In this document: positions 29,768 to 62,805 of the stretch, piece after piece
Position numbering within the stretch: position 1 is the first letter of the stretch
Layout: each line of letters starts with the position of its first letter
DNA from: a virus
Taxonomy: Duplodnaviria; Caudoviricetes
IMG/VR virus record: IMGVR_UViG_3300023048_000001
Location: 64,001-128,000 of that record
Reading direction: 5' to 3' (one strand)
DNA: 64,000 nt
The notes under the pieces: model-generated
Told to the model about the DNA's origin: nothing
What the model saw: only the letters and a program-made list of their open reading frames with translations
Databases searched by the model: none
Made by a program: the position numbers and the translations under genes

Positions 29768-30036
29768 ATACGCTTAGCCACGGGTATAGGGTGGATTACA
29801 AATTAAAAATAATACTGATTCAAATTTCGCCAAACTTGTTTTGAGCTTCCACGTATCCCATACCCTCACTGTGCATACAGTATAGCCTACTGTACCTGAA
29901 CGTATGCTGAATACTATTATGTAATGCTATGTTGTATTACGTTATACTCTATGCTAAGATAGGGTTGTGGCTGGGAAGGATGACACACTGACCATCACGT
30001 AACTCTATTGACTATCATGTAACTATGTGTTAGCTG

Positions 30037-30252
30037 TTAGTCTTTAGGTCTATCAGCATAGGGTGACAGGTCAATACGTATGACACCATTGGTAGCTACC
30101 ACATGTTGAAACAGTTGTCCATCCCTTGTGTATCGTGTAAGACGTTCGGGATAGTATCCATGTACTCTCTTACATAGCCAGTTAGTGGCAGCTACACAAC
30201 CCATGCGTCTATGCTTGGACTGCCATTCATTGATAGCATTGTCAAGTGTCAT
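30037..30252 (-). CDS. Small hypothetical protein
   Basis: 71-aa ORF, ATGA overlap. Confidence 0.55.
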   Translation of the reverse strand: MTLDNAINEWQSKHRRMGCVAATNWLCKRVHGYYPERLTRYTRDGQLFQHVVATNGVIRIDLSPYADRPKD

Positions 30253-30476
30253 ATGCTCTCGTACTTATCTATCAGGTAACCCATGACACCATCATAGCTA
30301 CCAGACGAGTATAGGGTAGAGGTACCGCTCATGAACCCGTCTGTATTGAAGTAGGTGACCAGCACGACATAAGACCCATGCGACTCCACTACCTCATAGT
30401 AGGACGCGTCTACAGAGCCTCTGGTGGAGGCTGAGGTGATGACGAGTTTATCACCACTGATATAGAATGCGTGCAT
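30249..30476 (-). CDS. Small hypothetical protein
   Basis: 75-aa ORF. Confidence 0.55.
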   Translation of the reverse strand: MHAFYISGDKLVITSASTRGSVDASYYEVVESHGSYVVLVTYFNTDGFMSGTSTLYSSGSYDGVMGYLIDKYESI

Positions 30477-30478
30477 GG

Positions 30479-30739
30479 TTATATCCGTTGCAGTGTGGTG
30501 ATGGGTTTGGAACGGTTGAGGGTATCGCCATGGTGCAGCATGAAGCCAATGTATCCACGCTTAGCGCATTCATCCTTAGCGAGTGCGATGTTATCCTGCA
30601 AGGTATGACGACCGTCGAGGATGATGGTAGCACGGTCACCGGTTGCTTCTATGGGCTTCTTGGCATCGTCACGGAAGATGGGAGGCGCAGAGCCTTTGAC
30701 ATAGCCGGTGGACATCTGAAAGAAGGTGGCAAAGATCAT
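30479..30739 (-). CDS. Small hypothetical early protein
   Basis: Directly follows an element B leader. Confidence 0.75.
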   Translation of the reverse strand: MIFATFFQMSTGYVKGSAPPIFRDDAKKPIEATGDRATIILDGRHTLQDNIALAKDECAKRGYIGFMLHHGDTLNRSKPITTLQRI

Positions 30740-30838
30740 GGTAGTTCCTTGTGGTGTGGAGCCATTATAATGGAATTGACTTAGGTGTCAACACCTTTGT
30801 ATAAAAGAAAACCCCCTTTCGGGGGCTTGACTGTGAGG

Positions 30839-31048
30839 TTAGTAGTTAACCTCATTGATATAGGTTGCTAGTCTCGACCCTCGTTTGATTTCACGAGCCT
30901 GTTTACGGGTCAGGGTGGGGAGGCTATCGAAGTAGGCATTGGCAGCTTCCTTGTACTCGGCCTTCTCTTCAGTAGTCATGGCCTTGAGCATGGCGCTCGT
31001 AACGTGCTTGAAATTGGTGGGCATCGCGATGATATTGGAAGCAGCCAT
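30839..31048 (-). CDS. Small hypothetical early protein
   Basis: Element B leader; terminator at 30808-30828. Confidence 0.75.
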   Translation of the reverse strand: MAASNIIAMPTNFKHVTSAMLKAMTTEEKAEYKEAANAYFDSLPTLTRKQAREIKRGSRLATYINEVNY

Positions 31049-31108
31049 GATCGTATCTCCTGTGGTGTGGATTCATTATAACGTAAATGAATCCACTGTC
31101 AACAGGGA

Positions 31109-31357
31109 TCAGGGATTATTTTTACGATGGTTCTGTGTAGCATAGGACTCGTGCATGTGCACCACCCGTCCCGTATCTTGATCTACGGCCCTTGCAGCTA
31201 ATTGGTGTACGTTGAGTTGCATCCGTTCCGCGTAGGCGCACATGTAGCCATCCACGGCTATGATGATATTATCTATTGGGCACTGTGGATGAAGTCTAGC
31301 ACTGAGGCGATGCCAGACAATGTGTTTTGTATCATGCTTGACTTCGATAACTATCAT
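31109..31357 (-). CDS. Small hypothetical protein
   Basis: TAATG coupling to the upstream gene. Confidence 0.55.
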   Translation of the reverse strand: MIVIEVKHDTKHIVWHRLSARLHPQCPIDNIIIAVDGYMCAYAERMQLNVHQLAARAVDQDTGRVVHMHESYATQNHRKNNP

Positions 31358-31725
31358 TAGCGGATGTCCGGCGTTGCAGCGTTGATGTTGTCCACGTTCT
31401 TAGCGAACCAGTCTTCTAACTTCTGCACCACTTCCTGTTCAGTCTTTCCGCTAATCTTGCGGACGTTGACACCAACGGCTTTAAGTGCACGCTTGGCGAA
31501 CATGTGACCTTCGATCATCCAACCGTTGCCATCCTTCTGGACAAGCAGGCGCATGTGGAGCGGGTCATTGTGGATGATACCATTGGCCCAAGTCTTTGAC
31601 GATGCGAACTCAACGCAGATGGTGGACTCGCCAATGAGTTTCCACGGCCATGCCTTGACGTGAGCGTTGGGGAACATGAGGCTAACGTTCTGGACGAAGG
31701 CATTGCAGATGTCATGCTGGCTCAT
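31357..31725 (-). CDS. Hypothetical early protein
   Basis: Element B leader, start MSQHDI. Confidence 0.75.
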   Translation of the reverse strand: MSQHDICNAFVQNVSLMFPNAHVKAWPWKLIGESTICVEFASSKTWANGIIHNDPLHMRLLVQKDGNGWMIEGHMFAKRALKAVGVNVRKISGKTEQEVVQKLEDWFAKNVDNINAATPDIR

Positions 31726-31807
31726 GGTGAATCCTCTGTGGTGTGTAGCCATTATAAAACAAAAGGGCCTGCGGATGCAAGCCCTTTCCATTATATTTTA
31801 AGCGTTA

Positions 31808-32098
31808 TCAGCATGCACCTTCGGCCATACGCAAACGATGCTCAGAGGCATCATCTGGATCATCATAGACAACCCTTTGCCCATCACTACCTGTGCGATA
31901 GATAGGTTGACGTTCGGGTTCATCACGGACCTTGCCTGTTGAGTTGCAGTAGGTACAGGGAGCGTCATATCCACCTTCAAGGTAGAATTCCCAATCGTCA
32001 GCATCAAAAGAATTACGATCCACAACGCCGATGACATCTACCCTCTCTTCGCCATTGCATACAGGGCAAATGATGTATGGGGCTTTAGCATTGGACAT
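31808..32098 (-). CDS. DnaJ-type zinc-finger-like small protein
   Basis: CPVCNG...CTYCNSTG; element B leader. Confidence 0.7.
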   Translation of the reverse strand: MSNAKAPYIICPVCNGEERVDVIGVVDRNSFDADDWEFYLEGGYDAPCTYCNSTGKVRDEPERQPIYRTGSDGQRVVYDDPDDASEHRLRMAEGAC

Positions 32099-32168
32099 GA
32101 TGGAATCCTCTGTGGTGTACTTACATTATAGAGGAATACATTCAAAAAGAAAAGCCCCTGTGAGGGGC

Positions 32169-32366
32169 TTAGTCTAATATCTTGTCTGTATGAAAATAGT
32201 CAGGAACGCGTGACACCCACACCTCAAGATTGGGGTATTGATTCTTAGCCCATGCTTCTACCTTGAGTCTACCGTCACGATCATTGGGAGCATTCACTTG
32301 AACCGTTTCACGTTCGCGCCAGCTAAACCCTTCAGTGTTCGGTTTGGTTTCAACCCGAAATTTCAT
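32169..32366 (-). CDS. Small hypothetical early protein
   Basis: AAGGA SD, own promoter, terminator at 32152-32171. Confidence 0.65.
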   Translation of the reverse strand: MKFRVETKPNTEGFSWRERETVQVNAPNDRDGRLKVEAWAKNQYPNLEVWVSRVPDYFHTDKILD

Positions 32367-32390
32367 GGCTATTCCTTGTGTGTACTTACA

Positions 32391-32594
32391 TTATACAGGA
32401 AGGTCGAGCTTGATTGCAACACGATCAAAGAGACGGTTAGCTACCGCATTCTCTTTTGCCACGTATTCACCTGCCTTCTCTTGGGTCATGAGGGTGGCTT
32501 GATAGTCCACATCCCAATTGCGATGATAGATACCATCCCAAGCGGCAGGGGTGACACGCTTGAGGATAACGTGATCTTTGGCATCGGTCATCAT
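32391..32594 (-). CDS. Small hypothetical early protein
   Basis: GAGGA SD, own promoter. Confidence 0.65.
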   Translation of the reverse strand: MMTDAKDHVILKRVTPAAWDGIYHRNWDVDYQATLMTQEKAGEYVAKENAVANRLFDRVAIKLDLPV

Positions 32595-32776
32595 GATTCC
32601 TCTGTGGGTAGATGCATTATATACAATCATTGAGCATCACGCAACACTTTTTTATAATGAAATAGTGCTTGTATCAATTCGATTTCTATTATAAAATAGG
32701 ATGGAGGTTGGAGATAAGGAGAGGCTAAAAAACAAAGGCCACCCCTTGACAGGATGGCCTTTGTGTGTATGTTCAG

Positions 32777-33139
32777 TTAGAAGCTACGATCATAGAAGGG
32801 GTTGGCACGGCCAATGAAGGCATCACGAACGGTACCCTTGAGCTTGCCACGGACGATTACCTCATGCAGAGACGGTTCGCCAAGCGGTGTGGAATCGTTC
32901 TCCCAACCCTTGACAGCGTAGCCTTCGGATTCGAAGTCCACCTTCCACGACATTTCCTGCAACATGTAACCCTTGATCTTGCCATTCTTGCCGTAGACAA
33001 TTTCGGTCACCTTGGCAGGCTTACGATCACGACCATAGAGGATAGTAGCCCAATCACCCACCTTTGCGTCAGGCTTGGCCGTGGTATCAGCCATCATGCC
33101 GCTGTAGAGGTTGCCGTACTTCATGGTGTTGTTGCTCAT
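32777..33139 (-). CDS. Hypothetical early protein
   Basis: Element B leader; C-terminal FYDRSF. Confidence 0.75.
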   Translation of the reverse strand: MSNNTMKYGNLYSGMMADTTAKPDAKVGDWATILYGRDRKPAKVTEIVYGKNGKIKGYMLQEMSWKVDFESEGYAVKGWENDSTPLGEPSLHEVIVRGKLKGTVRDAFIGRANPFYDRSF

Positions 33140-33378
33140 GGGTCTATCTCCGTGTGGTGTGATGCTATTCTACTAAAGGAATGTGTATCACGCAACCCCT
33201 TTTGAGTAATTATTTTAAATTAAATTAGCACTTGCACCAATTCGATTTCTGTTATAAAATAGGGTTGTGGCTGGGAGAGCAAGTGATTGGGTAAAAAGAA
33301 ACCCTCTCCACACCACATAGAGAGGGTTCCGACTTGCTCAGTTGCTACATGCTACCGTGTCACACTCACCCGTATACT

Positions 33379-33921
33379 TTAGCGAATCTTGATGACCTTG
33401 ACAATCTCAGTCTTATCACCAATGCTTTCGGCAATATCCATTGCCATTTGCTGAATTTCAGCTTGGATACATTCAGTGGCGTATGATTCAATACCCCACC
33501 GGGATTCTTCAGGGCCTTCAACGGGATTCCCGTTTACATCCAGTAGCTTGACAGTGACACCAACATAGTGCCACTCACTCGCGAGCCAGCCCCGCAAGTG
33601 TTTCATATCTTCATTCACGGCAAGCTCAAGCGCCTTACCCGGATGCATATCCGGCTTCACACCATCTGCTACCCAACCTTGAGCTTTCGCTTTCTTCATA
33701 GCGCCAGCAAAGTCATAGAGCCAGATGTCATAACCATCAACATGGATGACACGCTCACCGGGAGCCTTGAACGAACGGTATCCATTGTTACGTGTGTTCA
33801 CATGGCGAACCGTACCGTGTGCATCCGAACGGTCCCACGGACATTCATTGTCAAGATCAACCTCAATGAAATACTGAAAGCTAAGACCATTGATAGAGAA
33901 GATGGTTTCATGAATGCGCAT
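33379..33921 (-). CDS. Hypothetical early protein
   Basis: Element B leader; WHYVGV..ESRWGIES. Confidence 0.75.
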   Translation of the reverse strand: MRIHETIFSINGLSFQYFIEVDLDNECPWDRSDAHGTVRHVNTRNNGYRSFKAPGERVIHVDGYDIWLYDFAGAMKKAKAQGWVADGVKPDMHPGKALELAVNEDMKHLRGWLASEWHYVGVTVKLLDVNGNPVEGPEESRWGIESYATECIQAEIQQMAMDIAESIGDKTEIVKVIKIR

Positions 33922-33978
33922 GGTGGTTCCCTGTGGTGTGGAAGCATTATAACGTAATTGGTCTAACTGTGCAACACC

Positions 33979-34374
33979 TTATTCAATATTGGTGCGCAGA
34001 TAGAGCCAGCCACGGGAAGATTCAGCTTCAATGTACCACTTGCGGAAGTCGTCACGCAATGGCTTGGAAATGGCATCACCCAAGCCATTGTCTTCCAACT
34101 CTTTACGATCCCAAAAGCCTACACCATGACCACGGGCAGTCAGGTACAGATCGTGGCCGAATGCCGCTTCAGGGCTTCCAGAGTCAGGATGGGAACCATA
34201 ACCCTCAACCGCCAGCACTTGACGGGAAAGCTTTGGATATGCTTTGACGAATGCTTCAGCATACTTGCGAGCGGACGCCAGAGCCTTTTTGGTAACCTGT
34301 GGGTTCTTATCCTCACAATCGGCCCATACTGCGACAATGCACATATGCTTGGCGATGATGTCGAAGTCGATCAT
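33979..34374 (-). CDS. Hypothetical early protein
   Basis: Element B leader; GHDLYLT..GHGVGFWDR. Confidence 0.75.
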   Translation of the reverse strand: MIDFDIIAKHMCIVAVWADCEDKNPQVTKKALASARKYAEAFVKAYPKLSRQVLAVEGYGSHPDSGSPEAAFGHDLYLTARGHGVGFWDRKELEDNGLGDAISKPLRDDFRKWYIEAESSRGWLYLRTNIE

Positions 34375-34603
34375 GAGGTTATCTCCCGTGGTGTGGAGCT
34401 ATTATAAAACAAATGGAAAGGGGTTGCAAGGGTTTTGTGTAAAATAAAAGTGCCGGGGGTTATCGTCCGGCGTCCCATTTCGTATTGTCTCATATGGAAG
34501 CGTTATAATGGCAAAGGGTCCGCTACACCCACCGTTCAGCCTAAGTCGTTACTAACCGCTACGGCTGACACGTCCGTAACATAGCGGTCTTCAGGGTTAG
34601 CTC

Positions 34604-34873
34604 TTACTCGTTGGGCTTGAGGAATTCAGGCCAGAGGAAGGCATGCATTTCGTTTTCCGAATTGAGCAGCCAATTGTGGATGCTATTGGGGATACGGTCG
34701 GATTCGTCACCGATTTCACCCGTGTCAACTGCGCAGTTATACGTTGCGCTGTCACCGTTGGGAGCGTAGACCATGGCGGGAGTACCAGCACCCGGATCGT
34801 CAGGAATGATTTCACTCTTATCGAGTACCAGCTTCCAGCCGTCTTTGGTAAGGGTCTTCACGTTATCGCTCAT
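34604..34873 (-). CDS. Hypothetical early protein
   Basis: Element B leader; DDPGAGTPAMV. Confidence 0.75.
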   Translation of the reverse strand: MSDNVKTLTKDGWKLVLDKSEIIPDDPGAGTPAMVYAPNGDSATYNCAVDTGEIGDESDRIPNSIHNWLLNSENEMHAFLWPEFLKPNE

Positions 34874-34942
34874 GGTGTATCTCCTGTGGTGTGATTCCAT
34901 TATACTGGAACCATGGCAGAATGCAATACTTTTGTTGAATAA

Positions 34943-35293
34943 TTAAGGGCTAAAGTATTCTTTGATAACCCTTGACGCTTCAGCAATATTATGGGTTAGC
35001 ATTTCATCAGAGATAGGACCAATCAATTCCCTGATATCTTTCTCATTGTCAAGGGTTATCAACCTATCACCGTAACCACCCATGGCGTCTACCATATTGG
35101 TTCCGTTAATGTCAAATGCCCTGTCATCATCGAGCAATACCCAAGCGTGACCGATGTAGGGATCGATTTCCTCGCACAGTTCTACCACCATTGTCAAGCC
35201 ATAGGCCCGATGCATGGCCAGTGCCAGATACATGCATTTGCCGCACATATAAGCATCGATGATTGACTCAGGTACGGGCTTGATGGCATGCAT
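34943..35293 (-). CDS. Hypothetical protein with possible Cys-His-Asp triad
   Basis: G.C..LALA..., HAWV...FDING. Confidence 0.55.
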   Translation of the reverse strand: MHAIKPVPESIIDAYMCGKCMYLALAMHRAYGLTMVVELCEEIDPYIGHAWVLLDDDRAFDINGTNMVDAMGGYGDRLITLDNEKDIRELIGPISDEMLTHNIAEASRVIKEYFSP

Positions 35294-35455
35294 TAATATC
35301 TACCAGATGTCTTATGTGTGGTTACATTATACACAATCCATTACATAACACAACTCTTTTTTATAATGAAATAGGTGTTGACTGATTTCGATTTCTATTA
35401 TAAAATAGGTTGTGGCTGGGAGACTGTGCATAATGGAACTAAGCACACCACGCAA

Positions 35456-35773
35456 CTACTTTGTTATACAGAAATCGTAATCAGGGTGACGTGCCAAGTA
35501 GTTCTTAAGAAATTCCTTAGCTTCGTCCATGCTGGCAAAATCATGCTGAAACGTTCCCCAACCCCACTGACCGTTTCCCTTGGGTACACGAATCATCAAC
35601 CTGATAGGTGCATGGTCACCAGTGCGAACACGATAGGGTGTATATTCATCTTTACAAGCCAGCATGGCTATGGTATCACCATCAGGCGTCTCGGCGCTGG
35701 GCCATCCTCGCCGTTCGAATGAACGATAACGACCAGTGGGTGCAGACTGGACTTTCCATGCATATTTAATCAC
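35456..35773 (-). CDS. Hypothetical protein
   Basis: 105-aa ORF, TAG stop. Confidence 0.65.
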   Translation of the reverse strand: MIKYAWKVQSAPTGRYRSFERRGWPSAETPDGDTIAMLACKDEYTPYRVRTGDHAPIRLMIRVPKGNGQWGWGTFQHDFASMDEAKEFLKNYLARHPDYDFCITK

Positions 35774-35966: not shown

Positions 35967-35967
35967 G

Positions 35968-36824: not shown

Positions 36825-37001
36825 GGTAGTTCCCTGTGGTGTGATTACATTATACACAATCAATCCGGATATGCAACTCTTTTTTATAATGAAATAGGTG
36901 TTGACTGATTTCGATTTCTGTTATAAAATAGGTTGTGGCTGGGGAACCAGCATCAATTAAAATAAAACCCACCCTTGACAGGTGGGTTTCGTTATGATGG
37001 A

Positions 37002-37397: not shown

Positions 37398-37543
37398 GGT
37401 GTATCTCCTGTGGTGTGGAATCAGTATAACGTAATTCCAGATAGAGTCAACAATTATTTTAAATTAAATTGGCACTTGCACCAATTCGATTTCTATTATA
37501 AAATAGGTTGTGGCTGGGGAACTGACCGAAATGAAACCCGAAT

Positions 37544-38657: not shown

Positions 38658-38839
38658 GGTGAAACTCCTGTGGTGTGGAATCATTATAATTGAATATACG
38701 CCAGTGTCAAGCATGATATTCAATTAAATTAGTTGTTGACTGATTTCGATTTCTGTTATAAAATAGGTTGTGGCTGGGGAACTATCATCACGGGAGAAGA
38801 AACCCCTCCACACCACATAGAGGGGTTCCGTGTTACACT

Positions 38840-39916: not shown

Positions 39917-40313
39917 GTTAGTTCCCTGTGGTGTGGAATCATTATAATGGAAAGGTGCGATGTGGTCAACACCTTTCCACCATTATTTTATCAGGAATCG
40001 CGACGCTTGAACTCAGCGTCAATCGCATCCATTTCAGCATCAATTACATTTGCTTCGCGAAGGTCTTCCGTGGTGTTCTGCATGGCTTCATTGAGAGCTT
40101 CATAGCGGAGGATGAGCCAGTTATTCGTCTTATCAGCGAAGTCATACATGGTAACAGTTCCTTATGTGGTGTGGTTCCATTATACACAATCCATTATATA
40201 CCGCAAGGGATTTCTTTAAAATAATTGGATCTTTTTGCGAGGCTAGTCTTCCAGCCTCCATCCTATTTTATAACACAAATCGAAAAGGTGCAAGAAGTAT
40301 TTTCATTATATCC

Positions 40314-40559: not shown

Positions 40560-40847
40560 ATGTCCGTAACCAAACAGGACGTGGCGCGCTATGCTGCGGA
40601 GAAAGGGATAGAGATTGAGGATGAAGGTAGTGGTCGAGACCGTCACATCCATGGATACTCGCCCGATGGGTTCATCTTTAAAGCCACTGAAACCCATAAC
40701 ATCGGGTGCTATGATGGTGGTCATTGGGATGGTAAGCCGGTAGACTGGACGCATGTAATGGGTCAGCTTAAACTGATTCCTTGCCCCAACTATCCCAACT
40801 GCGAAATCTGCAATGAAGAGACGTATGTCGGCCCTTCCCAACTGTAG
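40560..40847 (+). CDS. Hypothetical protein with C-terminal Cys cluster
   Basis: TTGACA promoter, ACACCACA..GGAGG leader in + orientation; CPNYPNCEIC; TAG stop. Confidence 0.75.
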   Translation: MSVTKQDVARYAAEKGIEIEDEGSGRDRHIHGYSPDGFIFKATETHNIGCYDGGHWDGKPVDWTHVMGQLKLIPCPNYPNCEICNEETYVGPSQL

Positions 40848-41034
40848 GCAATGGTGGTTCATCCACTATAAGCCTGAACCATGGACGACCTATGCCATGG
40901 TGCTACGTTGGAGTACACAACGCCGTGATCTGTTCAATCTAAATTAAGTCCTTACGCAAGCGTAACCCTAGGGACATATAGCACAAGGCCTGAAGATATC
41001 TTCAGGCCTTTATCGTTTAAACTGTGCGGTTAGA

Positions 41035-43075: not shown

Positions 43076-43373
43076 GGATCACATCCTCTGGTTGATGGTT
43101 TCAATATAACGTAATCACCTAATACCGTCAAGCATTATATTCAAAGAATTTCATTCAGCTTAGGTTCAGGTATAGTGTTATAAAATAGGTGAGGGATGGG
43201 AGAACGGGAAGTTCCTGTGATCGAGGCGTGAAGAAAAGGCTTGACCCCATCACCCGTTAAGCTAAGATGATGGAACCAAGCCTTCGTTGTTAAGACGCTT
43301 GAGCGTGCCCTCTACCTTTGTGAAGTCGGCCAGTACGTCTACCACTTCCCCTTCAGGATCGAAGATCAACCAT

Positions 43374-45679: not shown

Positions 45680-45844
45680 GGTGTCTCCTTAGGTTGATTC
45701 ACTATAACGTAATCGGTTCTATAACGCAATAGTTTTATAATAAAAATACCTCTTGTGCTAATTCGATTTCTGTTATAAAATAGGATGGAGGCTGGAAAGC
45801 TAGCAATTGATTAAAGAAAACCCAGCGCAAGGCCGGGTTTGGTG

Positions 45845-49213: not shown

Positions 49214-50059
49214 TCAAGCAACTTGTGCAAGCATTTCCACTTTCAAAGGGACGAAGTTAACCGTTTCGTCAAGCATATCGAATTCGCTGGGGTAGATGGG
49301 ATTGCGACCGATGCGCATGGTGCGGACACGACCATCCGCGTCACCGTAATAGTTGTCAACCTTGGCAACGGTAGAGGTAATGATAGCTTCCAGCTTGTCC
49401 GTATCAAACGTGATGGACAGTGTGTCACCAAAGTCAACATGACGACTATGGCTCTTAATGGCGATCATATTCATTTCCATGAACTGGATAAGGTCACTAT
49501 TGGAATGCTTGCCATAACGAGCCTGCGCACGATTCCAGCCACGGAATGACCAGATAAGTGCAGACTGAATAGCACCCATCTTCTTTTCGAATTCTTCCTG
49601 CTTACTCACGTCGAACGTCCACGTATCGGTACGCCAGTCATGCTTGGACAGGGCACGACGAATGGTCGTATAGCAATACCTATGGAAGTCACGCACCAGT
49701 GCACGCAGGATAGGATCATCCGGGAGTGGTTCATCGCACGGCTCGACCTTCCATTCACGTTGTTCAAGAAAGTTGTAGAAATCCGTATAGATGGTTTCCA
49801 GCATGTAATCACGGGAATGGTACTGATTCCACATACGCTTACCACAGCGAAACAGGAATGCGGCTCCAAAGGCCATCATTTCATCTTCAATGCTGTCCTT
49901 GTCATCTTCATGATGTTCGTACACATCATGGCACACCACATGCGGAGAATGGCACGGATCGAAGTGCGGACGATTCTCTATGCGCCAGCCACCGCTAGGA
50001 CCAAAGAAATGACCATTGGTGATTTCAGCATAAACAAACTTGCGGGTCTGGATCGTCAT
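49214..50059 (-). CDS. HDxxEH-motif putative metalloprotein
   Basis: GWR...FDP...HDVYEH...EMMAFG; element B leader. Confidence 0.7.
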   Translation of the reverse strand: MTIQTRKFVYAEITNGHFFGPSGGWRIENRPHFDPCHSPHVVCHDVYEHHEDDKDSIEDEMMAFGAAFLFRCGKRMWNQYHSRDYMLETIYTDFYNFLEQREWKVEPCDEPLPDDPILRALVRDFHRYCYTTIRRALSKHDWRTDTWTFDVSKQEEFEKKMGAIQSALIWSFRGWNRAQARYGKHSNSDLIQFMEMNMIAIKSHSRHVDFGDTLSITFDTDKLEAIITSTVAKVDNYYGDADGRVRTMRIGRNPIYPSEFDMLDETVNFVPLKVEMLAQVA

Positions 50060-50425
50060 AGGATTCATTCCTGTGGTGTGTTGATGGATTTAATTATACA
50101 CACCACCATCACTGATGCAAGTCCTTTTAAGAATGAAATTGAGGTTTTATTTTACACAAACGTATTGACTGATTTCGATTTCTATTATAAAATAGGATGG
50201 AGGCTGGAAGACTAGCCTCCCGAAACTGAACAAATAAAAAGCCCCGACCAACGTGGCCGAGGCTTTGTGTATCATTCAAGTTTGTATCATCTAAGTGTTA
50301 ATCAATTCTCAATATGGTTGTGAGCGGATTACATATAGATACCCTCGTTCATGATTTGATGTTACTGACAATGTTGCGTCTGAGGTTACATCTTACGGCA
50401 CCACCAACACTTTGTAAAGCTTTTA

Positions 50426-53403: not shown

Positions 53404-53898
53404 CTACTTTTCTTCACTTTCGTTAGTAATGGTGTTGGAACACAGATCACGAATCCCGTCAAGCGCCAGCGAATCCCGGAAGTTCGCCAGATTGATGTCA
53501 CGAGCGCATTCATTACAATAGTGGGCACGGGTGCTTCGGTTGAACCAATAGGCTCCCGGAGCCAGACAGGCAGAACGGTTGCACAAGCCACCACGTTCAC
53601 CTTTAACCTTTGAAAGCTGGGTAAGGGTGTTGATGTGTTCGCGTTCGAACTGGCGGTGTTGCTTGTTGATCAGAAATGCATGATCGATCACGCTGGGGAA
53701 GTTGTTAGGGGAGTAGTTATGTTGCGTGAGCCAGTTTTCGATAAGTGCAGAGCACTTTTGATTATTCGTTTCGTAGAACAGTTCAGGCCAAGGTTTGGCA
53801 ATGTACATATTCACGAAACGCTGCCCCATGCGTTGCTTATCGTGTGCTTCTTTGCGGTAGTGATAATCGTAGAACTCGATAAGTAAGCTGATGGTCAT
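53404..53898 (-). CDS. Hypothetical protein with C-terminal Cys cluster
   Basis: RMGQRF.N...LFY; CNRSAC...YCNECA; TAG stop. Confidence 0.7.
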   Translation of the reverse strand: MTISLLIEFYDYHYRKEAHDKQRMGQRFVNMYIAKPWPELFYETNNQKCSALIENWLTQHNYSPNNFPSVIDHAFLINKQHRQFEREHINTLTQLSKVKGERGGLCNRSACLAPGAYWFNRSTRAHYCNECARDINLANFRDSLALDGIRDLCSNTITNESEEK

Positions 53899-54172
53899 TT
53901 GCCCTATCCCTCGTTTGAGTATGTGAAGAGTGTAAAGGGTGATTCACACATGTCAATAGGCTGTGTAACATTTGTGATGCTCTTTTTCGGTGGGGGTTTT
54001 GTTTCATTGATACCTTCAAAGATTGTGAGGGTAGTTCTCCAGCCACAACCTATTTTACCATATGGAACCTGAATGTAGCCTGAACAATCAATTGAATATA
54101 ATGGTTGACAGGTGGGTTACGTTTTAGTAGTCTGGATGGATGTGATATCGACCAAGGGAGGTCCGAACCTGA

Positions 54173-54571
54173 ATGGTTTGTAAAGTTATCGTTAAGCCAT
54201 TGTTAGCTGTTGAGCAACCGGTCATTGACCAGTTTCGTCTACACAATCATGGCTATGAAGAAGGTAGGATGCTGGAAGCCATTGACTTTGCTTACAATGA
54301 AAGGAACCTTGGCGAGGATGACAATAGAGTATACCGGGCAGTGACCGCTGGTTACATTCTGGATGATGGTGAGTTACATTCATGGGGTCTGATATACGAG
54401 TTGTATGAGTCCCGTGGGGTGTATTCCTATCACATGGATGTATACACGGTACCCAAGGCCAGAGGGATGGGTTACGGTACACTGATAGTGAAGACCCTCA
54501 AGCAATTACATGATGGCTACATCTATACGTACAAGGCACATTCTTCGATCTACACCAGACTAGGGATGTAA
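54173..54571 (+). CDS. GNAT-like acetyltransferase
   Basis: VYTVPKARGMGYGT (acetyl-CoA motif A); GGAGG SD; paralog of 58123-58509. Confidence 0.7.
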   Translation: MVCKVIVKPLLAVEQPVIDQFRLHNHGYEEGRMLEAIDFAYNERNLGEDDNRVYRAVTAGYILDDGELHSWGLIYELYESRGVYSYHMDVYTVPKARGMGYGTLIVKTLKQLHDGYIYTYKAHSSIYTRLGM

Positions 54572-54622
54572 TTAAGTCCTTACGCTTGCGTAACCATAAA
54601 GGCCCCTACAGGGGCCTTTGTT

Positions 54623-56530: not shown

Positions 56531-56857
56531 TCAAACTGGCGGGTTGAAATGGATATCCGGCCAGATGACGTAGGTCTTGTCTTCATTGATGATGATACCA
56601 CCCATGAGGCCATGACGTGCGGCAATCTCAAGGATTTGTGCCGGGGAACCTTCCATTGCCCAGCAACGCGGCTGCGCCATGTGGAAGCTGAAACCCTTCT
56701 TGACAACCGTAGCACAAACTGTCTGCTCTTCGATATGATCGAACAGAGCCTTCAGGTCTTCATGCGAATCACCACGGCTATAAGACGCCAGATTCACTGA
56801 CAACTCACGATTCGATCCGTTGTAGGATTGAATCATCTTTTCGATAAGGGGATGCAT
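56531..56857 (-). CDS. Hypothetical protein
   Basis: GAGGA SD. Confidence 0.65.
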   Translation of the reverse strand: MHPLIEKMIQSYNGSNRELSVNLASYSRGDSHEDLKALFDHIEEQTVCATVVKKGFSFHMAQPRCWAMEGSPAQILEIAARHGLMGGIIINEDKTYVIWPDIHFNPPV

Positions 56858-56866
56858 GATGGTTCC

Positions 56867-57502
56867 TCAGAGTGATGCAACGTTGAGTTTGGGAAGCATT
56901 GCCTTTGACCAACGATAGAACATGTGCCGTCCTACCCGAGCGATGAGCTTGTAATTCTTGTCCTTAGCCCAATAAGGTTTAACATATTCAGCATGGTAGT
57001 GCGTCATGCCATCGATGTCAATCTTCTTGGAAGGCTTTAACGCACCAAGCATGACCAGCTTTGCGATAGTATATGACTGTTCCCATTCCGCTGCAACAGC
57101 ATCGTTCGTGAAATCAATATCATGGTTCTCACCATCGCATACCCATGAGAATGAACACTTGGCCTTGATGAGGTTACCATGACTGTCTGTGTTGGCCTGA
57201 TTGACCACACCACAGATGGTGGAAGGGAAGTGGGGAGACATGGTGCGTTCCAGTACAACGGTGGCAACCATCACCTTTCCATTTGCATCCTCACCACGCG
57301 ATTCAAAGAATACGTTTTGAGCCATGCAATCCAATTGCACCATATCCAACATCTGAATAGGTTTAACAGTGTTGGGTGGAATCGCAACGGCTATATGTGA
57401 CCGTGGCCGAACGATTGCGTATTCCCACAATGCTGCAATCATTAGTGAAGCAAATAACCCGAAGCTTACCCAAGCCATGAAAGAACACAGGCGAGTTCGC
57501 AT
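56867..57502 (-). CDS. SleB-like cell wall hydrolase (Hydrolase_2) with N-terminal TM anchor
   Basis: CMAQNVFFESRGE, VA.VV.ER, FPSTICGVV.Q, C.FSW, THYHA.YV.P.W, GRH.FY; AAGGAG SD. Confidence 0.9.
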   Translation of the reverse strand: MRTRLCSFMAWVSFGLFASLMIAALWEYAIVRPRSHIAVAIPPNTVKPIQMLDMVQLDCMAQNVFFESRGEDANGKVMVATVVLERTMSPHFPSTICGVVNQANTDSHGNLIKAKCSFSWVCDGENHDIDFTNDAVAAEWEQSYTIAKLVMLGALKPSKKIDIDGMTHYHAEYVKPYWAKDKNYKLIARVGRHMFYRWSKAMLPKLNVASL

Positions 57503-57548
57503 CTCTACTCCTTGTTGAGTCAGTGGGGTAATGATACGGTTATATAAT

Positions 57549-57902
57549 TTAAATGTCAATAGCTGGGAAGCGAGCCATAGCAGTAGGGACACCACCCAAT
57601 GCACGAGTGGCTTCCTTCCATTCTTTACCATGGATGTATCGTGCATAAGGGAACATGATCCCCTGAACGATATGTGCTATTTCGTGAGGAATGATTTCCT
57701 GTATCACGTAATCCCGGTTCATACGTGCATAGGCTGGATTGATGTAGACGACATTGATGTTCTGGTCAGCCAGACCTACATAGTCATCACCAATATCTTC
57801 AATTCTGAGCTTGATGTTATACATGTCAAGATCAGGCCACAGAAGCTTCGCCTTGGCTAGGCAACGATTGAATGCAATATGCAGTGCGGGATAGAGTTCC
57901 AT
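57549..57902 (-). CDS. SprT-like zinc metalloprotease
   Basis: IPHEIAH...HGKEWK. Confidence 0.85.
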   Translation of the reverse strand: MELYPALHIAFNRCLAKAKLLWPDLDMYNIKLRIEDIGDDYVGLADQNINVVYINPAYARMNRDYVIQEIIPHEIAHIVQGIMFPYARYIHGKEWKEATRALGGVPTAMARFPAIDI

Positions 57903-58122
57903 GGTAAAAGAATATCCGATTTAAATTATACGGTCAAGCCTTTCACCAAAATCTTCAAAGTCGAGAAGGCATATCCCCCAGCCACAACCTATTTTATCAT
58001 ATCTATTCTGAACGTAGGCTGAACAGATCAATATCGTTTAGATTCGGTTCATATGTTAACGGCATAATGACTTCTGTGAATTTGGCATCAACGTTTGAGC
58101 ATCATATAACAGGTTGTTAAGA

Positions 58123-58509
58123 ATGAGTTACGTAATCGTCTATAGTGAACCACTTGAGTCAATTAGTTCGGAAATGCGCAAAGAGCTTTACACACTGAAC
58201 TCTGGTACCAATGGAAGGATGCAATGCAACCTTGCATATTACGGTACACAGAATGCTCGCATGCAAAATGCTACAGTGTTCTATATCCTCAAAAGGAATA
58301 AAGTCGTTTCATGGGCAGTTGTGTATAATCCAACTCTTTACCCAAATCGATTCTCCAAGAAATTTGAAATGGATATCTTCACCCGTAAGTCAGCCCGTGG
58401 TAATGGCTATGGAACTGCTGTTGCGGAAACAGTGAGAGATGCATTTAAAGGTAAACTCATTCATGCGTGTAAGGGCATGACATCAGTCTATAGACGTGCT
58501 GGTATTTAA
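58123..58509 (+). CDS. GNAT-like acetyltransferase
   Basis: IFTRKSARGNGYGT; paralog of 54173-54571. Confidence 0.7.
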   Translation: MSYVIVYSEPLESISSEMRKELYTLNSGTNGRMQCNLAYYGTQNARMQNATVFYILKRNKVVSWAVVYNPTLYPNRFSKKFEMDIFTRKSARGNGYGTAVAETVRDAFKGKLIHACKGMTSVYRRAGI

Positions 58510-58554
58510 GTCCTTACGCTTGCGTAATGTAGAGGTGTATGGTACAGTCCTAGC

Positions 58555-59058
58555 ATGGACACTATTATCTTCTTTGATCTTGAAAATACTCTCATATGGG
58601 ATTGGACGGATAACCGCGATCCCATGTGGCTAAAGCACCCTGAAATCACCGAGTGGATTTTCGCTCAAGGTGATTTCCGTGCTGGTCTCTTTTCATGGGC
58701 TATCTGGAATCCTAAAGATATAGCCGAGTTCAGTGAAGAGGGTGGAGTCCGTGAAGCCATCGAAACAACCCACCAGTTTCAATTTGAGGATGATCTAATC
58801 ATCACTCGTGGAATGCTGGGTGACCGCTTCAGGAAATGGTTTAAAACTATGCCTTGGGTCTCTGACGATGATTGGTTTGAGTTCTTCAAGAAGCGCCAGA
58901 CCATCCAAGAGCTATGGCTCCATGAATTCAATCAGCCGAACACTCGTGTTGTTCTATTGGATGACACTGTAGAGAACGTGACTATGATTAATAATAGTGT
59001 CGAGAACAACCGTCTAGAGTTGATCGACCCATGGACCTTTAAGGGAATGTTTAAATGA
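58555..59058 (+). CDS. HAD-superfamily-like protein
   Basis: IFFDLENTLI, LFSWA, VLLDD. Confidence 0.6.
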   Translation: MDTIIFFDLENTLIWDWTDNRDPMWLKHPEITEWIFAQGDFRAGLFSWAIWNPKDIAEFSEEGGVREAIETTHQFQFEDDLIITRGMLGDRFRKWFKTMPWVSDDDWFEFFKKRQTIQELWLHEFNQPNTRVVLLDDTVENVTMINNSVENNRLELIDPWTFKGMFK

Positions 59059-59378
59059 CAATGCGTTTCTTCGCTATCCAATGCACTGCTTGCAATGATG
59101 TGCTAATCAGCCGTGCAGGCCATGACTTCAACCGCTGCTCATGTGAGGACATGCTATTCATCGATGGAAACAGTTCCCTGTCAGGTGATGGCTACTATCG
59201 TGTGGGTTACAACATCACTGAAGCTCGTCCTAGTGTCAATGTCATGTATGTCGATCTTCCCATTACACCAAGGGAAGCTTACGATGACTGGAACAAAAGA
59301 ATTGATAAGTGGAAGAAAATCGATATTACTAAGTATCCACCTATCGAAATTCCCAAAGAATCTGACAAGAATAAATAG
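59055..59378 (+). CDS. Zn-ribbon protein
   Basis: C..C.D...S...HDF..CSC...IDG. Confidence 0.7.
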   Translation: MTMRFFAIQCTACNDVLISRAGHDFNRCSCEDMLFIDGNSSLSGDGYYRVGYNITEARPSVNVMYVDLPITPREAYDDWNKRIDKWKKIDITKYPPIEIPKESDKNK

Positions 59379-59398
59379 ATCAAACATTAGGTAATAAC

Positions 59399-59731
59399 AT
59401 GACAGCACACGTTTCAAGTACTCAAATCCTCGATCATATTAAAACTGCTACCTCTATCTCTGTAGAAGGTAAGGTCTTTGATAAGATCACTGTAACAGAT
59501 ACAAAGGTATCAATCGGTCCTTATACCTTCCTCATTGATCATTTTGATATTGGTGGTCTGTCTCCACAGACTATCGTACTCATGGATACTGATGGTGAGT
59601 ATAGACATCTTATGCTCCTAGGTGAGGATGATACCCGTCTCGATCATCCTGATTGGTCCATTGAACAATATAACCCTGAAAAGATTCGCAATCATCACCT
59701 CCTACCAAAGGGTGACAAGAAGACCAAATAA
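59399..59731 (+). CDS. Hypothetical protein
   Basis: 110-aa ORF, AGGT SD. Confidence 0.6.
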   Translation: MTAHVSSTQILDHIKTATSISVEGKVFDKITVTDTKVSIGPYTFLIDHFDIGGLSPQTIVLMDTDGEYRHLMLLGEDDTRLDHPDWSIEQYNPEKIRNHHLLPKGDKKTK

Positions 59732-59734
59732 GGT

Positions 59735-59763
59735 TTGACAGGAAGTTATAAAACATCTAATAT
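59735..59763 (+). promoter_or_regulatory. Sigma70-like promoter of the RNA operon
   Basis: TTGACA-N17-TAATAT. Confidence 0.65.
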
Positions 59764-59771
59764 TTGTCTCG

Positions 59772-59990
59772 TGGTCAACAACATGTAACTCACCGCTAGG
59801 GCGGATATATTCACCAGTAATATATGAAGGTGCGATCCCTTGAGACAGCGTTAGACGTTCTATATGAGGGTGCGATTCCTTCCTGTTGTTGTGAAGCCAA
59901 AGTTACGGTGAAAAGTGATGCATAAGCCAAGCGTGCGTGTGCAAACATCTGATCCATTTTTCTAGAGAATGAAATCTAGCCGTAGCGGTA
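59772..59990 (+). ncRNA. Putative structured RNA(s) with two T-loop-like hairpins
   Basis: CAACAACA/TGTTGTTG closing stem; repeated TATATGARGGTGCGATYCCTT. Confidence 0.5.
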
Positions 59991-60008
59991 CTAAATTTAG
60001 AATAATAT

Positions 60009-60093
60009 GCCACTATGGCGGAATAGGTAGACGCAGCAGACTTAAAATCTGCCGCCCTTGGGCGTCCGGGTTCGATTCCCGGTGGTGGTACCA
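60009..60093 (+). tRNA. tRNA-Leu (TAA)
   Basis: GCAGA-CTTAAAA-TCTGC, long variable arm, GGTTCGATTCC, CCA. Confidence 0.96.
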
Positions 60094-60110
60094 TATTATT
60101 CAAACAGTTT

Positions 60111-60238
60111 GATCCCTTAGCTCAGTGGTCTGATGGAAGAACAATCATTCTTAGTGTAATCAGAATGACCTTCGGAAGTCTTAGAGCGGAGAACTCTAAA
60201 TCCTCGCGTCGTGGGTTCGAATCCCACAGGGATCGCCA
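60111..60238 (+). tRNA. CTA-anticodon (amber suppressor-type) tRNA with a 50-nt D-loop insertion
   Basis: GATCCCT/AGGGATC acceptor, GCTC/GAGC D stem, loop CTCTAAA (CTA at 60196-60198), GTGGG-TTCGAAT-CCCAC, GCCA end. Confidence 0.8.
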
Positions 60239-60327
60239 AATTGATGTAGTTGCAGTGAGACACACTCCTGTAATTTAAGTAGGCAAGAATGCAGTGACTT
60301 AATACTTCTTTTTAGTGTGTATAACAC

Positions 60328-60362
60328 AAAAGCCCTTGACGATTGTTAAGGGCTTTCTTTTT
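60328..60362 (+). terminator. Intrinsic terminator of the tRNA operon
   Basis: AAAGCCCTTGAC...GTTAAGGGCTTTCTTTTT. Confidence 0.8.
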
Positions 60363-60372
60363 GGAAAATATA

Positions 60373-60612
60373 ATGGAACTTCTAATCAACATCTTATTCG
60401 TCCTCCACTTCGGCTATCATGCCGCTGCTACCATTGGTGGAGTCTGGTCCCTTCTACATAGCCACAATGCTCACAAACGTAGCTGGTGGAAGATTGCCCT
60501 AGCTTTTGTATGGCTCGCTTTGAGTATCTTGCTACTCGTTGTCAGCCATGATAAACTCCATCATCACGAGGACGAATGCAATCATGTTCAAACTATTCAA
60601 GAAAAAGCCTGA
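60373..60612 (+). CDS. Small His-rich membrane protein
   Basis: Two TM segments. Confidence 0.6.
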   Translation: MELLINILFVLHFGYHAAATIGGVWSLLHSHNAHKRSWWKIALAFVWLALSILLLVVSHDKLHHHEDECNHVQTIQEKA

Positions 60613-60991
60613 ACCTTTCATCCATCACGATCTGTACAAAAACGCAATCAAAGCTATTGATGAGCTTTTCAAGGATATGCTCAATGATGATGCCAAGATG
60701 CGTAAGCTTTACCTATTCCATTATGGTGAAGCGCCAGCCACAGAACTTCATGCCACCTTCGCAGCTACCCTAGTCCATAACCTCTACAATAGGGTTAGCC
60801 TAGAGCTTCCAACTAAGTTTAAAGAGAAACACGATACCTTTACATCCACTCTGGAATTCTGTTATACTCCTTATCTTGAAACAGGTGCAGTACTGGTCGA
60901 ACTCAAGATCGCCACACTGTTACTCTGGAAAGCAACAGAACATCATCATAAAGATTGGACTACCTATGAAGAAGCAAACCCACAAACCTAA
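60584..60991 (+). CDS. Hypothetical protein
   Basis: GAGGA SD. Confidence 0.6.
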   Translation: MFKLFKKKPEPFIHHDLYKNAIKAIDELFKDMLNDDAKMRKLYLFHYGEAPATELHATFAATLVHNLYNRVSLELPTKFKEKHDTFTSTLEFCYTPYLETGAVLVELKIATLLLWKATEHHHKDWTTYEEANPQT

Positions 60992-61109
60992 AATTAATAA
61001 CCTTGTGGCGAAACATGCCATGAAGGTGAACAAGGCTGCGGTCATGCGTGATCGTAAGAATGACTATAACCGTACCGACAAACATAAGAAGGGAGAAGGT
61101 GATGAGTAA
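60966..61109 (+). CDS. Small basic phage protein
   Basis: NLVAKHA...NKA.V..DRK..Y.R..KHK. Confidence 0.6.
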   Translation: MKKQTHKPKINNLVAKHAMKVNKAAVMRDRKNDYNRTDKHKKGEGDE

Positions 61110-61290
61110 TTTCTTTAATTGGTACTTCGTTATCGGTGGTACTCTCTCACTTGCTCTCGTAATTGCATATATGTTCAATCCGGGAATGATCGATCCTCGA
61201 CTACTCATCGTGACCAACTCATTTGCTGTTGCTGGTCTCGGATTCCGTATAGCTTATGATCATTATCACCCTGAAGCGTCAAAGCATTGA
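61102..61290 (+). CDS. Small membrane protein
   Basis: GGAG SD, two hydrophobic segments. Confidence 0.6.
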   Translation: MSNFFNWYFVIGGTLSLALVIAYMFNPGMIDPRLLIVTNSFAVAGLGFRIAYDHYHPEASKH

Positions 61291-61357
61291 CATTTGTGAT
61301 TTTAAAGCATATTATACTTGCACCTAATATAAACATCGAAGGATGCAATAAAAACCA

Positions 61358-61582
61358 ATGAGTAATGCGAAAAATCTTCAGGCTCAAATTCAGAAGCTCA
61401 GTAAGGATTTGGTTGAAGCAGAACATAACCTGAATCAGGCTGAATCCAATCCTGATACCGATGAAGCTACTATGCTGGAACTTGAAGATATCGTACAAGA
61501 TGTTCAGGATGCCCTCTATGATGCTCAGGAAGAACTCGATAGACTCTATGCTCCCGATGCCTACTACGATGATAACTATTAA
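61358..61582 (+). CDS. Small acidic coiled-coil protein
   Basis: TTGACA..TATACT promoter, AAGGA SD; terminator at 61607-61632. Confidence 0.7.
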   Translation: MSNAKNLQAQIQKLSKDLVEAEHNLNQAESNPDTDEATMLELEDIVQDVQDALYDAQEELDRLYAPDAYYDDNY

Positions 61583-61703
61583 TCAATAACTCATCTAGTA
61601 ATGAATAGACCCGCTTCGGCGGGTTTTCTTTTGCCCATCATTTGAACATACAAAGAAAAAGGCCACCCGAAGATGACCTTTCATTATAACTTAACCTAAT
61701 ACC

Positions 61704-61940
61704 TTAGACTTCAGATTCTTGCTCTGCCTTCTCACTCAAAGCTTTCTGATCCTCACGGCCTTCCCACATAGAAAAGACACCATAAACCATGACTGCAAAC
61801 ATCAAAATCCAGAAATCCAATAAATCAACAGTGACACCATGACGATGCATTACGTTAAACATCAATGACAGACCCACATACTGCAAGACCTGATAGAACT
61901 TAATGTTCTCCTTCACCCAATCCTTAATCTTTGTCCACAT
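61704..61940 (-). CDS. Small membrane protein
   Basis: GGAG SD, two TM segments. Confidence 0.6.
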   Translation of the reverse strand: MWTKIKDWVKENIKFYQVLQYVGLSLMFNVMHRHGVTVDLLDFWILMFAVMVYGVFSMWEGREDQKALSEKAEQESEV

Positions 61941-62028
61941 GTATATACACTCCAAAAGTAATGTATATATTGTATCCTCTTAACAAACAAAAAGAAAGGG
62001 TCGTTTTCACGACCCTTTCATGGGTAAT

Positions 62029-62481
62029 TCAATATTCTGTTCCTTCGCACACTAACCCCCACTTATAACGTAACCCTCTCAGGTTCTTACCCAAATCCTC
62101 AAGGAAGTATCTCTTCTCCTGCCGTATACTGTCATGCACCATCTGCAAATCTTGAAGAAATTCACACCTCATCTTCAAAAACTTCGCATCAATGTCATCC
62201 CGTACATCCAAATGATCCATGTAATGCTGCACCAGATAACACACCGATGTATGGTTACCCCTGTCCATTTCCGGTAAATATAAAGGGTCAGGCATGATCA
62301 TCCCTATCGTATCCCTACACCCTCCCTCTCCCCTGTAACTACATCTGATTATCTGTAATTGATGATCGAAGGTCGTACTCTTCCTACCCTGCTCAACCAT
62401 CCGTATCTCAACATATTCTAAAACTATCTCTTCATTGATATAACCATTAAGATATTCTGATATACCTATCGTTGACATCAT
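62029..62481 (-). CDS. Hypothetical protein
   Basis: GAGG SD; QG..S......C.YRG..G...IG...PD..Y...M...LQ..HD. Confidence 0.7.
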   Translation of the reverse strand: MMSTIGISEYLNGYINEEIVLEYVEIRMVEQGRKSTTFDHQLQIIRCSYRGEGGCRDTIGMIMPDPLYLPEMDRGNHTSVCYLVQHYMDHLDVRDDIDAKFLKMRCEFLQDLQMVHDSIRQEKRYFLEDLGKNLRGLRYKWGLVCEGTEY

Positions 62482-62603
62482 TCCTCTCCCTAAAGATTAG
62501 ACTCCTGCCATCCTCAATATAACCCATCCATACCACAAGTGTCAATCAACACAAAAATGTGACTGCCATTCTCCCCGCCTCCATCCTATTTTATCATATC
62601 CAA

Positions 62604-62805
62604 CCTGAACCTAACCTGAACAAAATTTATTTTCTCGATCACCCGTTTAACACCCCGAATCTGCGTATCATAGGCCTCCACCAACAAGGTATCCCATCTA
62701 ACACACCTTACCTGAACGGTTACTGAACCAATTGTTAAGAATGTTAAAACTTCGTTATCTTTAAAATGAATGGAACCTGAACCGTGGCTGAACGATGCCA
62801 GAACC
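62604..62805 (+). repeat. Cluster of 11-bp-periodic CTGAAC direct repeats
   Basis: Pairs or triplet at ~62605, 62712, 62777. Confidence 0.7.

Follow-up and report, generated by a model that had tools for sequence, protein, structure and literature searches.

A modular promoter-like core recurs, mostly without a gene of its own, among the small-gene cassettes of an uncultured jumbo phage

The DNA analysed here, referred to throughout as the window, comprises 64,000 bp (bases 64,001-128,000) of the 174,626-bp IMG/VR virus record IMGVR_UViG_3300023048_000001, whose CheckV completeness is ~50%. It carries a short repeated sequence, Element A, in 14 copies between window positions 29,932 and 62,621, and no copy lies elsewhere in the record. 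We infer that Element A is a promoter core of modular build, of a kind that the host's sigma-70 RNA polymerase reads, inserted as a recombining accessory into cassettes like the promoter-early stem-loop (PeSL) cassettes of T4-type phages, and that the copies with no gene ahead of them (orphans) would give local antisense or insulating transcripts. We place the probability of this reading at about one half.

The sequence-only reading of this DNA had described a dispersed family of 14 copies, and the family is real. A scan of the whole record for the -10 hexamer joined to the initial-transcribed unit returned 13 copies, to which the degenerate copy at 43182 was added to give 14; their scan positions, by which we name the copies together with their strand, run from 29,956 to 62,592. 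Their number is far above chance, and none was found outside a single 33-kb block. The 20-mer TTCGATTTCTRTTATAAAAT, with up to three mismatches, has nine matches against 0.02 expected, and TTATAAAATAGG, with up to one mismatch, has 12 against 0.44 expected. TAAAATAGG occurs 14 times in the 174-kb record, 13 of them within Element A, and no solo halves were found. Copies up to 50,189 lie on the plus strand save 40269-, and those from 54,056 onward on the minus strand, so that the orientation switch placed near 51 kb stands with one exception. The distance between copies is irregular, ranging from 563 to 7,017 bp among the eight copies that make up repeat family D2; with this irregularity and the confinement to one block, nothing supports the proposal of periodic protein-loading sites for DNA entry.

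All 14 copies have in common a -10 hexamer TAAAAT (TAAGAT in one), an AGG discriminator, either TTGT or ATGGA, the string GGCTGG and a purine run, and the fixed part of the transcribed start amounts to its first ~12-15 nt. Two different halves are found upstream of this unit. In the ten class i copies TTGnnn is followed by a 17-bp spacer, which is invariant in nine of them, giving the fixed string TTCGATTT(C/G)T(A/G)TTATAAAATAGG; in these nine the TTG of the -35 is completed by ACT (four times), CAC (three times), TAT or TGC. The exact TTGACT-N17-TAAAAT geometry, a 10/12 hexamer match, was confirmed for four copies (35402, 36925, 38760 and 50189), five more keep only the TTG of the -35 at the same spacing, and copy 29956 keeps the geometry as TTGTAT-N17-TAAGAT with a different spacer. 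The conserved spacer noticed earlier is therefore a property of nine of the ten class i copies. It carries 2.0 bits per column, compared with 0-0.4 bits in the spacers of functional leftward promoters of the same block, and the conservation of class i is sharp-edged. The palindrome CTATT-ATAA-AATAG that had been read into the element is perfect in copies with A at the R position (A or G) and broken in those with G there.

In the four class ii copies (43182+, 54056-, 57995- and 62592-) the -35 and the whole spacer are absent and are replaced by two GTTCAGG-like units, 11 bp apart; three of the four have a TGn extended -10 directly before TAAAAT, and the whole record holds just nine such pairs of TTCAG units. 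The TTGT and ATGGA variants of the transcribed start are each found with both upstream halves. By hexamer spacing or by the TGn motif, Element A conforms to the sigma-70 type of promoter. Judged by this anatomy, class i is a putative -35-dependent form, and class ii has the layout of an activator-dependent promoter. Transcription is predicted to start ~6-8 nt past TAAAAT, and the RNAs would begin near GUGGCUGG or GGAGGCUGG. Separately, we observed that at three places on the plus strand (32653-32658, 35362-35367 and 36885-36890) a second TATAAT-GAAATAGG lies ~40 nt upstream of TAAAAT-AGG, resembling a partial tandem duplicate of the -10 and discriminator within a shared AT-rich stretch.

The setting of most copies is an array of ~19 PeSL-like leftward cassettes (30700-51330, minus strand), each consisting of a terminator hairpin that ends in a long U tail, then an AT-rich stretch, a TTGACA-N16/17-TATAAT promoter, the leader CACACCACAGGAG and an ATG. 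In eight or nine cassettes of the array a forward Element A copy separates the terminator from the AT-rich stretch; it points in the opposite direction, with its -35 ~22-24 bp from that of the leftward promoter. The leftward cassettes themselves show an invariant leader CACACCACA followed by GGAG and ATG, i.e., a fixed CA-rich 5' untranslated start. Within the array, the only strong plus-strand promoter-like sites that do not serve the plus-strand gene 40560-40847 are Element A or adjoin it.

The element had been described as driving no gene, which is correct for ten of the 14 copies: these have neither a ribosome site nor an open reading frame (ORF) ahead of them, and nine of the ten stand back-to-back with a leftward promoter, eight or nine of these nine promoters being those of early-gene cassettes. 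The remaining four (40269-, 54056-, 57995- and 62592-) are codirectional with, and upstream of, genes. The arrangement reported earlier, back-to-back with a leftward promoter and facing a terminator, is likewise seen in seven forward copies, where the hairpin of the preceding gene lies ~25-40 nt past the predicted start. Copy 32693 (32669-32715, ATGGA) is back-to-back with the promoter of gene 32391-32591(-) and faces the terminator at 32732-32764; 33256 (33232-33279, TTGT) faces that at 33298-33330, whose loop holds the leader motif CCACACCACA; 36925 (36901-36947), with a 5' hairpin GCTGG-GGAA-CCAGC, faces that at 36964-36990; and 37500 (37476-37522, with TTGCAC as its -35) faces a hairpin at ~37528-37543. 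Further right, 38760 (38736-38782, TTGACT) faces the terminator at 38799-38830, again with CCACACCACA in its loop, 45777 (45753-45799, ATGGA) that at 45818-45840, and 50189 (50165-50211, TTGACT and ATGGA, with a 9-bp 5' hairpin) that at 50238-50266. No clear hairpin is met downstream of the other three orphans. Copy 35402 (35378-35424(+), exact TTGACT-N17-TAAAAT) reaches no clear terminator before the stop codon of gene 35456-35773(-). The diverged class i copy 29956 (29932-29978(+), TTGTAT-N17-TAAGAT-AGG-GTTGTGGCTGG) lies on a G+C boundary, back-to-back with a leftward GTTCAG-repeat promoter at ~29895-29911. The class ii copy 43182 (43154-43204(+)) has a degenerate transcribed start (GTTCAG repeats, TAAAAT, AGG, TGAGGGATGGG), and is followed by a TTGACC-N16-TAAGAT site and by no plus-strand gene.

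We also noted sequence shared between some of the faced terminators and other parts of the block. The plus-strand loop of the terminators at 33298-33330 and 38799-38830 reads CCACACCACATAGAG, the early-leader motif, and the end of the minus-strand message would expose its complement. CTTGACAGG stands in two other terminator loops (32732-32764 and 36964-36990), and TTGACAGGTGGGTT(T/A)CGTT recurs at 54104-54132 as the promoter of the rightward gene 54173-54571. Such regulatory pieces appear to be reused in different roles, in terminator loops and in the promoter of 54173-54571.

The four gene-directed copies all have a second sigma-70-type promoter between the element and the gene. For gene 39991-40149(-), the reversed class i copy 40269- (40247-40293) forms a tandem with the consensus promoter and leader, upstream of both, and the RNA predicted from this copy starts with the hairpin GAGGCTGG-AAGA-CTAGCCTC. 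Class ii copy 54056- (54034-54085; GTTCAGG twice at an 11-bp period, then TGG-TAAAAT) is upstream of TTGACA-N16-TACACT and gene 53404-53898(-), and back-to-back with the rightward promoter of 54173-54571. Copy 57995- (57973-58024) stands back-to-back with the rightward unit 58114-58509 and precedes TTGACC-N17-TATTCT and gene 57549-57902(-), and copy 62592- (62570-62621, ATGGA) is upstream of TTGACA-N18-TATATT and gene 62029-62481(-). Around each of the three minus-strand class ii copies a module is repeated (repeat families D14 and D15), in which the element is accompanied by a rightward promoter, a rightward gene and the hairpin TTACGC(AA/TT)GCGTAA. To the right of 40269- there is likewise this hairpin and a rightward gene, whose promoter is, however, set apart from the element by a small leftward gene. 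In its longer form, AAGTCCTTACGC(AA/TT)GCGTAAC, the hairpin occurs four times (40941-40972, 54569-54600, 58503-58534 and 63140-63171), in each case with a minus-strand Element A copy ~530-680 bp to its left, and it closes the element/rightward-gene module. The TTGACC-N17-TATTCT site (57902-57937, minus strand) lies 6 nt from the ATG of gene 57549-57902, with no ribosome site, and the message made from this proximal promoter may be leaderless.

PeSL cassettes and their promoter-middle stem-loop (PmSL) counterparts have been described in T4-type phages (Arbiol et al., 2010, PMC2839356; Comeau et al., 2014, PMC4122927), with a PeSL and PmSL pair reported for phage nt-1. The leftward cassettes studied here agree with what has been published on PeSLs (PMC4122927). 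In both systems short conserved regulatory units are repeated between small ORFan genes of a variable region, sigma-70-like promoters stand beside A3-4/G3...C3/T3-4 stem-loops, and an early version with a -35 exists next to a version with an activator box, the two classes of Element A paralleling the PeSL/PmSL pair. In both, the copies recombine, with an identical core between unrelated flanking genes (PMC2839356, PMC4122927). Element A recurs as a conserved cassette part in what is probably a hyperplastic region of small ORFan genes. A PeSL, however, is codirectional with the gene it controls and closes with a Shine-Dalgarno sequence and start codon, whereas ten Element A copies point away from the adjacent gene. 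The order of stem-loop, promoter, Shine-Dalgarno sequence and start codon is instead that of the leftward cassettes ("element B"), which are the real counterparts of PeSLs. An extra module between stem-loop and AT-rich stretch, Element A usually runs in the opposite direction and lacks a gene, and because it is not codirectional with a gene bearing a Shine-Dalgarno sequence and start codon we regard it as a new accessory module rather than a PeSL. It seems to be a new addition to the promoter-terminator cassettes that T4-like phages shuffle; neither PMC2839356 nor PMC4122927 mentions oppositely oriented orphan promoters.

Comparison of the copies with each other revealed that they are mosaics, the nearest copy changing from segment to segment. 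Copy 50189 is closest to 35402 in its -35 and spacer (0.96) and identical to 40269- in its transcribed start; 40269- in turn has a -35 block closest to that of 33256, and in its transcribed start class ii copy 54056- most resembles class i copy 38760. For each pair drawn from the -35 block, the R position and the transcribed-start variant, all four combinations are seen. This pattern requires repeated exchange between copies, as proposed for PeSLs. Typical PeSLs mark places where close relatives differ by insertion, deletion or exchange, or give rise to mini-circles; for Element A the exchange is seen among copies of the one genome. The freely varying spacers of the leftward promoters in the same block indicate that homogenisation alone does not explain the invariance of the class i core, and its spacer is either recognised by something beyond sigma-70 or belongs to a class that spread recently. 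By its sequence, Element A is an accessory module of PeSL-like terminator-promoter cassettes.

A polymerase starting at an orphan copy would meet the preceding gene head-on at its 3' end and, in the seven copies listed above, would enter that gene's terminator hairpin. The expected product is an RNA of ~45-65 nt complementary to the 3' hairpin of the neighbour's mRNA, or a longer antisense RNA if the polymerase read through. Head-on occupancy by polymerase beside the release site of the leftward transcript could insulate neighbouring cassettes, and alternatively or in addition the upstream message could be destabilised, as by lambda OOP RNA. In the four gene-directed copies the same core would be an extra upstream promoter of a gene.

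Lambda OOP RNA is a 77-nt cis-antisense RNA transcribed from pO that overlaps the 3' end of the cII message. Like OOP, the predicted orphan RNA would be short, would come from its own promoter converging on a phage gene, would stop at a hairpin and could pair with a message at its 3' end; in eight forward class i copies the geometry is that of OOP, with a convergent promoter of their own and a predicted transcript complementary to a gene's 3' end. OOP differs in being a single locus with an efficient terminator of its own and an overlap into coding sequence, whereas Element A occupies ~9 such loci, overlaps mostly the 3' hairpin only, borrows that hairpin and has no known RNase III effect. A second likeness is to the strong early promoters of coliphage T5, which are reportedly conserved beyond the hexamers and influenced by their downstream transcribed region. 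Both are families of phage promoters for host polymerase (by prediction, in the case of Element A) with conserved spacers and first transcribed bases, but those of T5 drive genes and have similar rather than identical spacers, whereas in Element A the -35 is weaker, the spacer invariant and a gene mostly absent. We favour a local role for the orphans, i.e., an OOP-like antisense effect, insulation between cassettes, or both.

Several observations weigh against the reading of Element A as a host-type promoter with a local role. The five class i copies that retain only the TTG of the -35 reach just 8/12 overall. Recognition by sigma-70 does not account for the invariant spacer, which points to an extra binding factor or to recent spread. 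The U tails on the plus strand are short, leaving the size of the RNA uncertain, and there is no sign of selection for termination. Both the promoter activity and the antisense or insulator role are predictions from the sequence.

A co-ordinated version of the same idea is possible, though unlikely. Here the invariant spacer, -10, discriminator and fixed 5' start would be a control point specific to the phage, at which a phage factor would switch on about ten antisense promoters together. The early ORFan array would then be silenced or insulated as a whole, through convergent transcription combined with pairing to the 3' terminator hairpins. OmpR/PhoB-type boxes (e.g., PhoP, PHO) are direct repeats at an 11-bp period in place of a -35, and the two GTTCAGG units of class ii likewise lie 11 bp apart, directly upstream of an extended -10. 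Their sequence, however, matches no verifiable box, and an OmpR-type activator encoded by the phage found no support, no Trans_reg_C domain being present in the 174,626-bp record, which represents about half of the genome.

We consider it rather unlikely that Element A serves chiefly to bind a protein, as the operator or loading site of some phage or host factor; it would then be either no productive promoter or a promoter whose key feature is the regulator bound to it. The candidate site would be the invariant 24 bp TTCGATTTCTRTTATAAAATAGG, which contains a tandem GATTTC repeat and the CTATT/AATAG inverted repeat. Its appeal comes from the invariance of spacer and -10 while the -35 varies (TTGACT, TTGCAC, TTGTAT, TTGTGC), from the freedom of spacers in the neighbouring functional promoters and from the sharp edges of the conservation. 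Against it, class ii lacks the whole spacer yet keeps the -10 and the transcribed start, which makes the polymerase-proximal part the family-wide unit; the inverted repeat is broken in copies with G at the R position, and no DNA-binding gene can be assigned among the neighbours, all of which are ORFans.

It is less probable again that the orphans are relics, promoters of rightward units whose cargo was removed by cassette recombination and which gene conversion from the working copies keeps alike without any function of their own. Four copies do drive genes by position, the class ii copies are part of the repeated element/rightward-gene/hairpin module (D14 and D15), the mosaicism shows active exchange, and copies 29956 and 43182 are visibly decayed. 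On the other hand, the 23-bp core is flawless in eight orphan copies, and gene conversion has left the spacers of adjacent leftward promoters unhomogenised. The orphans are also the majority, and neither their slot, between terminator and AT-rich stretch, nor their orientation ever varies.

A family of tiny non-coding RNAs, as first proposed, fared poorly. In its strongest form the copies would encode sibling trans-acting small RNAs with a shared 5' seed, GUGGCUGGGGAAC or GGAGGCUGGAAGAC, and borrowed terminators, directed at phage early leaders or host messages. The 12-15-nt 5' end conserved in all copies and the hairpin ~25-40 nt downstream in seven speak for it, and in pairing with the CACACCACAGGAG leaders the G-rich TTGT variant is among the best 2.5-3.4% when ranked against random genomic 16-mers. 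The ATGGA variant is unremarkable in the same comparison (28-31%), and pairing of the 5' end with the leader was not above that of composition-matched shuffles (p = 0.09-0.44); an anti-leader seed found no support. Beyond the borrowed hairpins the predicted RNAs have no common fold, sharing only their first 12-15 nt, and the region has no match in Rfam. The short 5' hairpins with which transcripts were said often to begin do exist at 36938, 40239, 45791 and 50200, but in these four of the 14 copies only. The hairpins that the element faces are the terminators of convergent leftward genes, with their long U tails on the minus strand and only 3-6 T of 9 on the plus strand. We rejected the possibility that these terminators are adapted to stop an Element A RNA, with 4.6 T of 9 against 4.7 at ten element-free terminators (p = 0.8); pointing into a terminator follows from the insertion slot of the module and gives no evidence of a designed RNA end. 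The same 5' end would also head ordinary mRNAs in four copies. We regard trans-acting small RNAs as very improbable.

Starting points for replication or antitermination are the least probable of the explanations considered, whether as T4-type R-loop origins (promoter, G-rich start, AT-rich stretch) or as lambda-Q-type loading sites from which polymerase would read through terminators to make long antisense RNA that shuts off early genes: promoters without genes, a non-template strand that is G-rich at the start and then A-rich, a terminator close downstream and a conserved spacer and transcribed start would suit them, but ten copies in 20 kb far exceed any known set of origins, the A-rich stretch is merely the U tail of the convergent terminator, the copies show no GC-skew feature, the transcribed starts TTGTGGCTGGGGAAC and ATGGAGGCTGGAAGAC hold no -10-like pause element of the lambda Q type (TAnnnT-like), and no candidate factor was identified.

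Other candidates were set aside on simpler grounds. A small peptide beginning ATGGAGGCTGG would have its start only 3 nt past the -10 and no ribosome site. A promoter for a phage single-subunit (T7-type) RNA polymerase found no support: class ii lacks the upstream half that it would need, and Pfam RNA_pol had no match in the 174 kb, a weak result given that the control search was silent. Resemblances to Chi, CRISPR repeats, two-tetrad G-quadruplexes and sigma-54 promoters were judged by eye only, and each is partial or limited to a subset of copies.

The 33-kb block that holds Element A is distinct from its surroundings. The G+C content rises from ~0.38 to ~0.47 at ~30 kb and drops back past ~58 kb; these steps (~29500-30100 and ~58000-63000) bound all Element A copies and all leftward cassettes, and the first copy lies exactly on the left boundary. 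The coding strand is the minus strand at 30-54 kb, with the few long plus-strand ORFs traversing intergenic promoters, and ~25 leftward ORFan genes separated by PeSL-like cassettes lie in the GC-richer block. The genes flanking Element A are small, mutually unrelated ORFans although the core of the element is identical, and 18 of the 20 neighbour genes tested have no Pfam family, the exceptions being a cell-wall hydrolase and one weakly GNAT-like protein. Small ORFan genes and consensus host-type promoters together suggest that the block is an early or hyperplastic region. The hydrolase is a 259-aa protein encoded at 56867-57646 (minus strand) between two class ii copies, with its domain at the C terminus (Hydrolase_2, E = 7.6e-21). 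The rightward genes 54173-54571 and 58114-58509 encode paralogous small proteins (31% identity, E = 7e-14), and the first of these gave weak GNAT acetyltransferase matches, both with Pfam scores under the cut-off. Gene 49214-50068 has a 76%-identical homologue (P0001) on an 11-kb Logan contig.

The ribonucleotide reductase of the phage has at most ~50% identity to those of RaK2, GAP32 and CBB-type giant phages, which places it as an uncultured, distantly related jumbo phage. Its ribonucleotide-reductase relatives in IMG/VR are all at or below 53% identity, and five large ones among them have neither the motif nor the neighbouring gene; protein-anchored searches found no relative. Pattern scans for Element A gave one chance match in IMG/VR, in coding DNA, and five in metagenomes, all without the transcribed-start motif, and megablast and blastn searches of cultured phages returned no match.

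The variable early regions of large phages are known as arrays of recombining promoter-terminator cassettes, and that literature leaves unexplained promoters that point backward into a neighbour's terminator. If the orphan copies of Element A are active, they would add a layer of control to phage early programmes, through antisense regulation, insulation or co-ordinated shut-off, and the co-ordinated switch, if true, would be a general and undescribed "anti-cassette" layer of PeSL-type regions. Active copies would also be a natural source of compact parts, among them promoter-terminator insulators and promoter pairs that fire in both directions. Element A, with two upstream halves available to a single core, would constitute a natural experiment in the rewiring of a promoter from -35-dependent to activator-dependent control.

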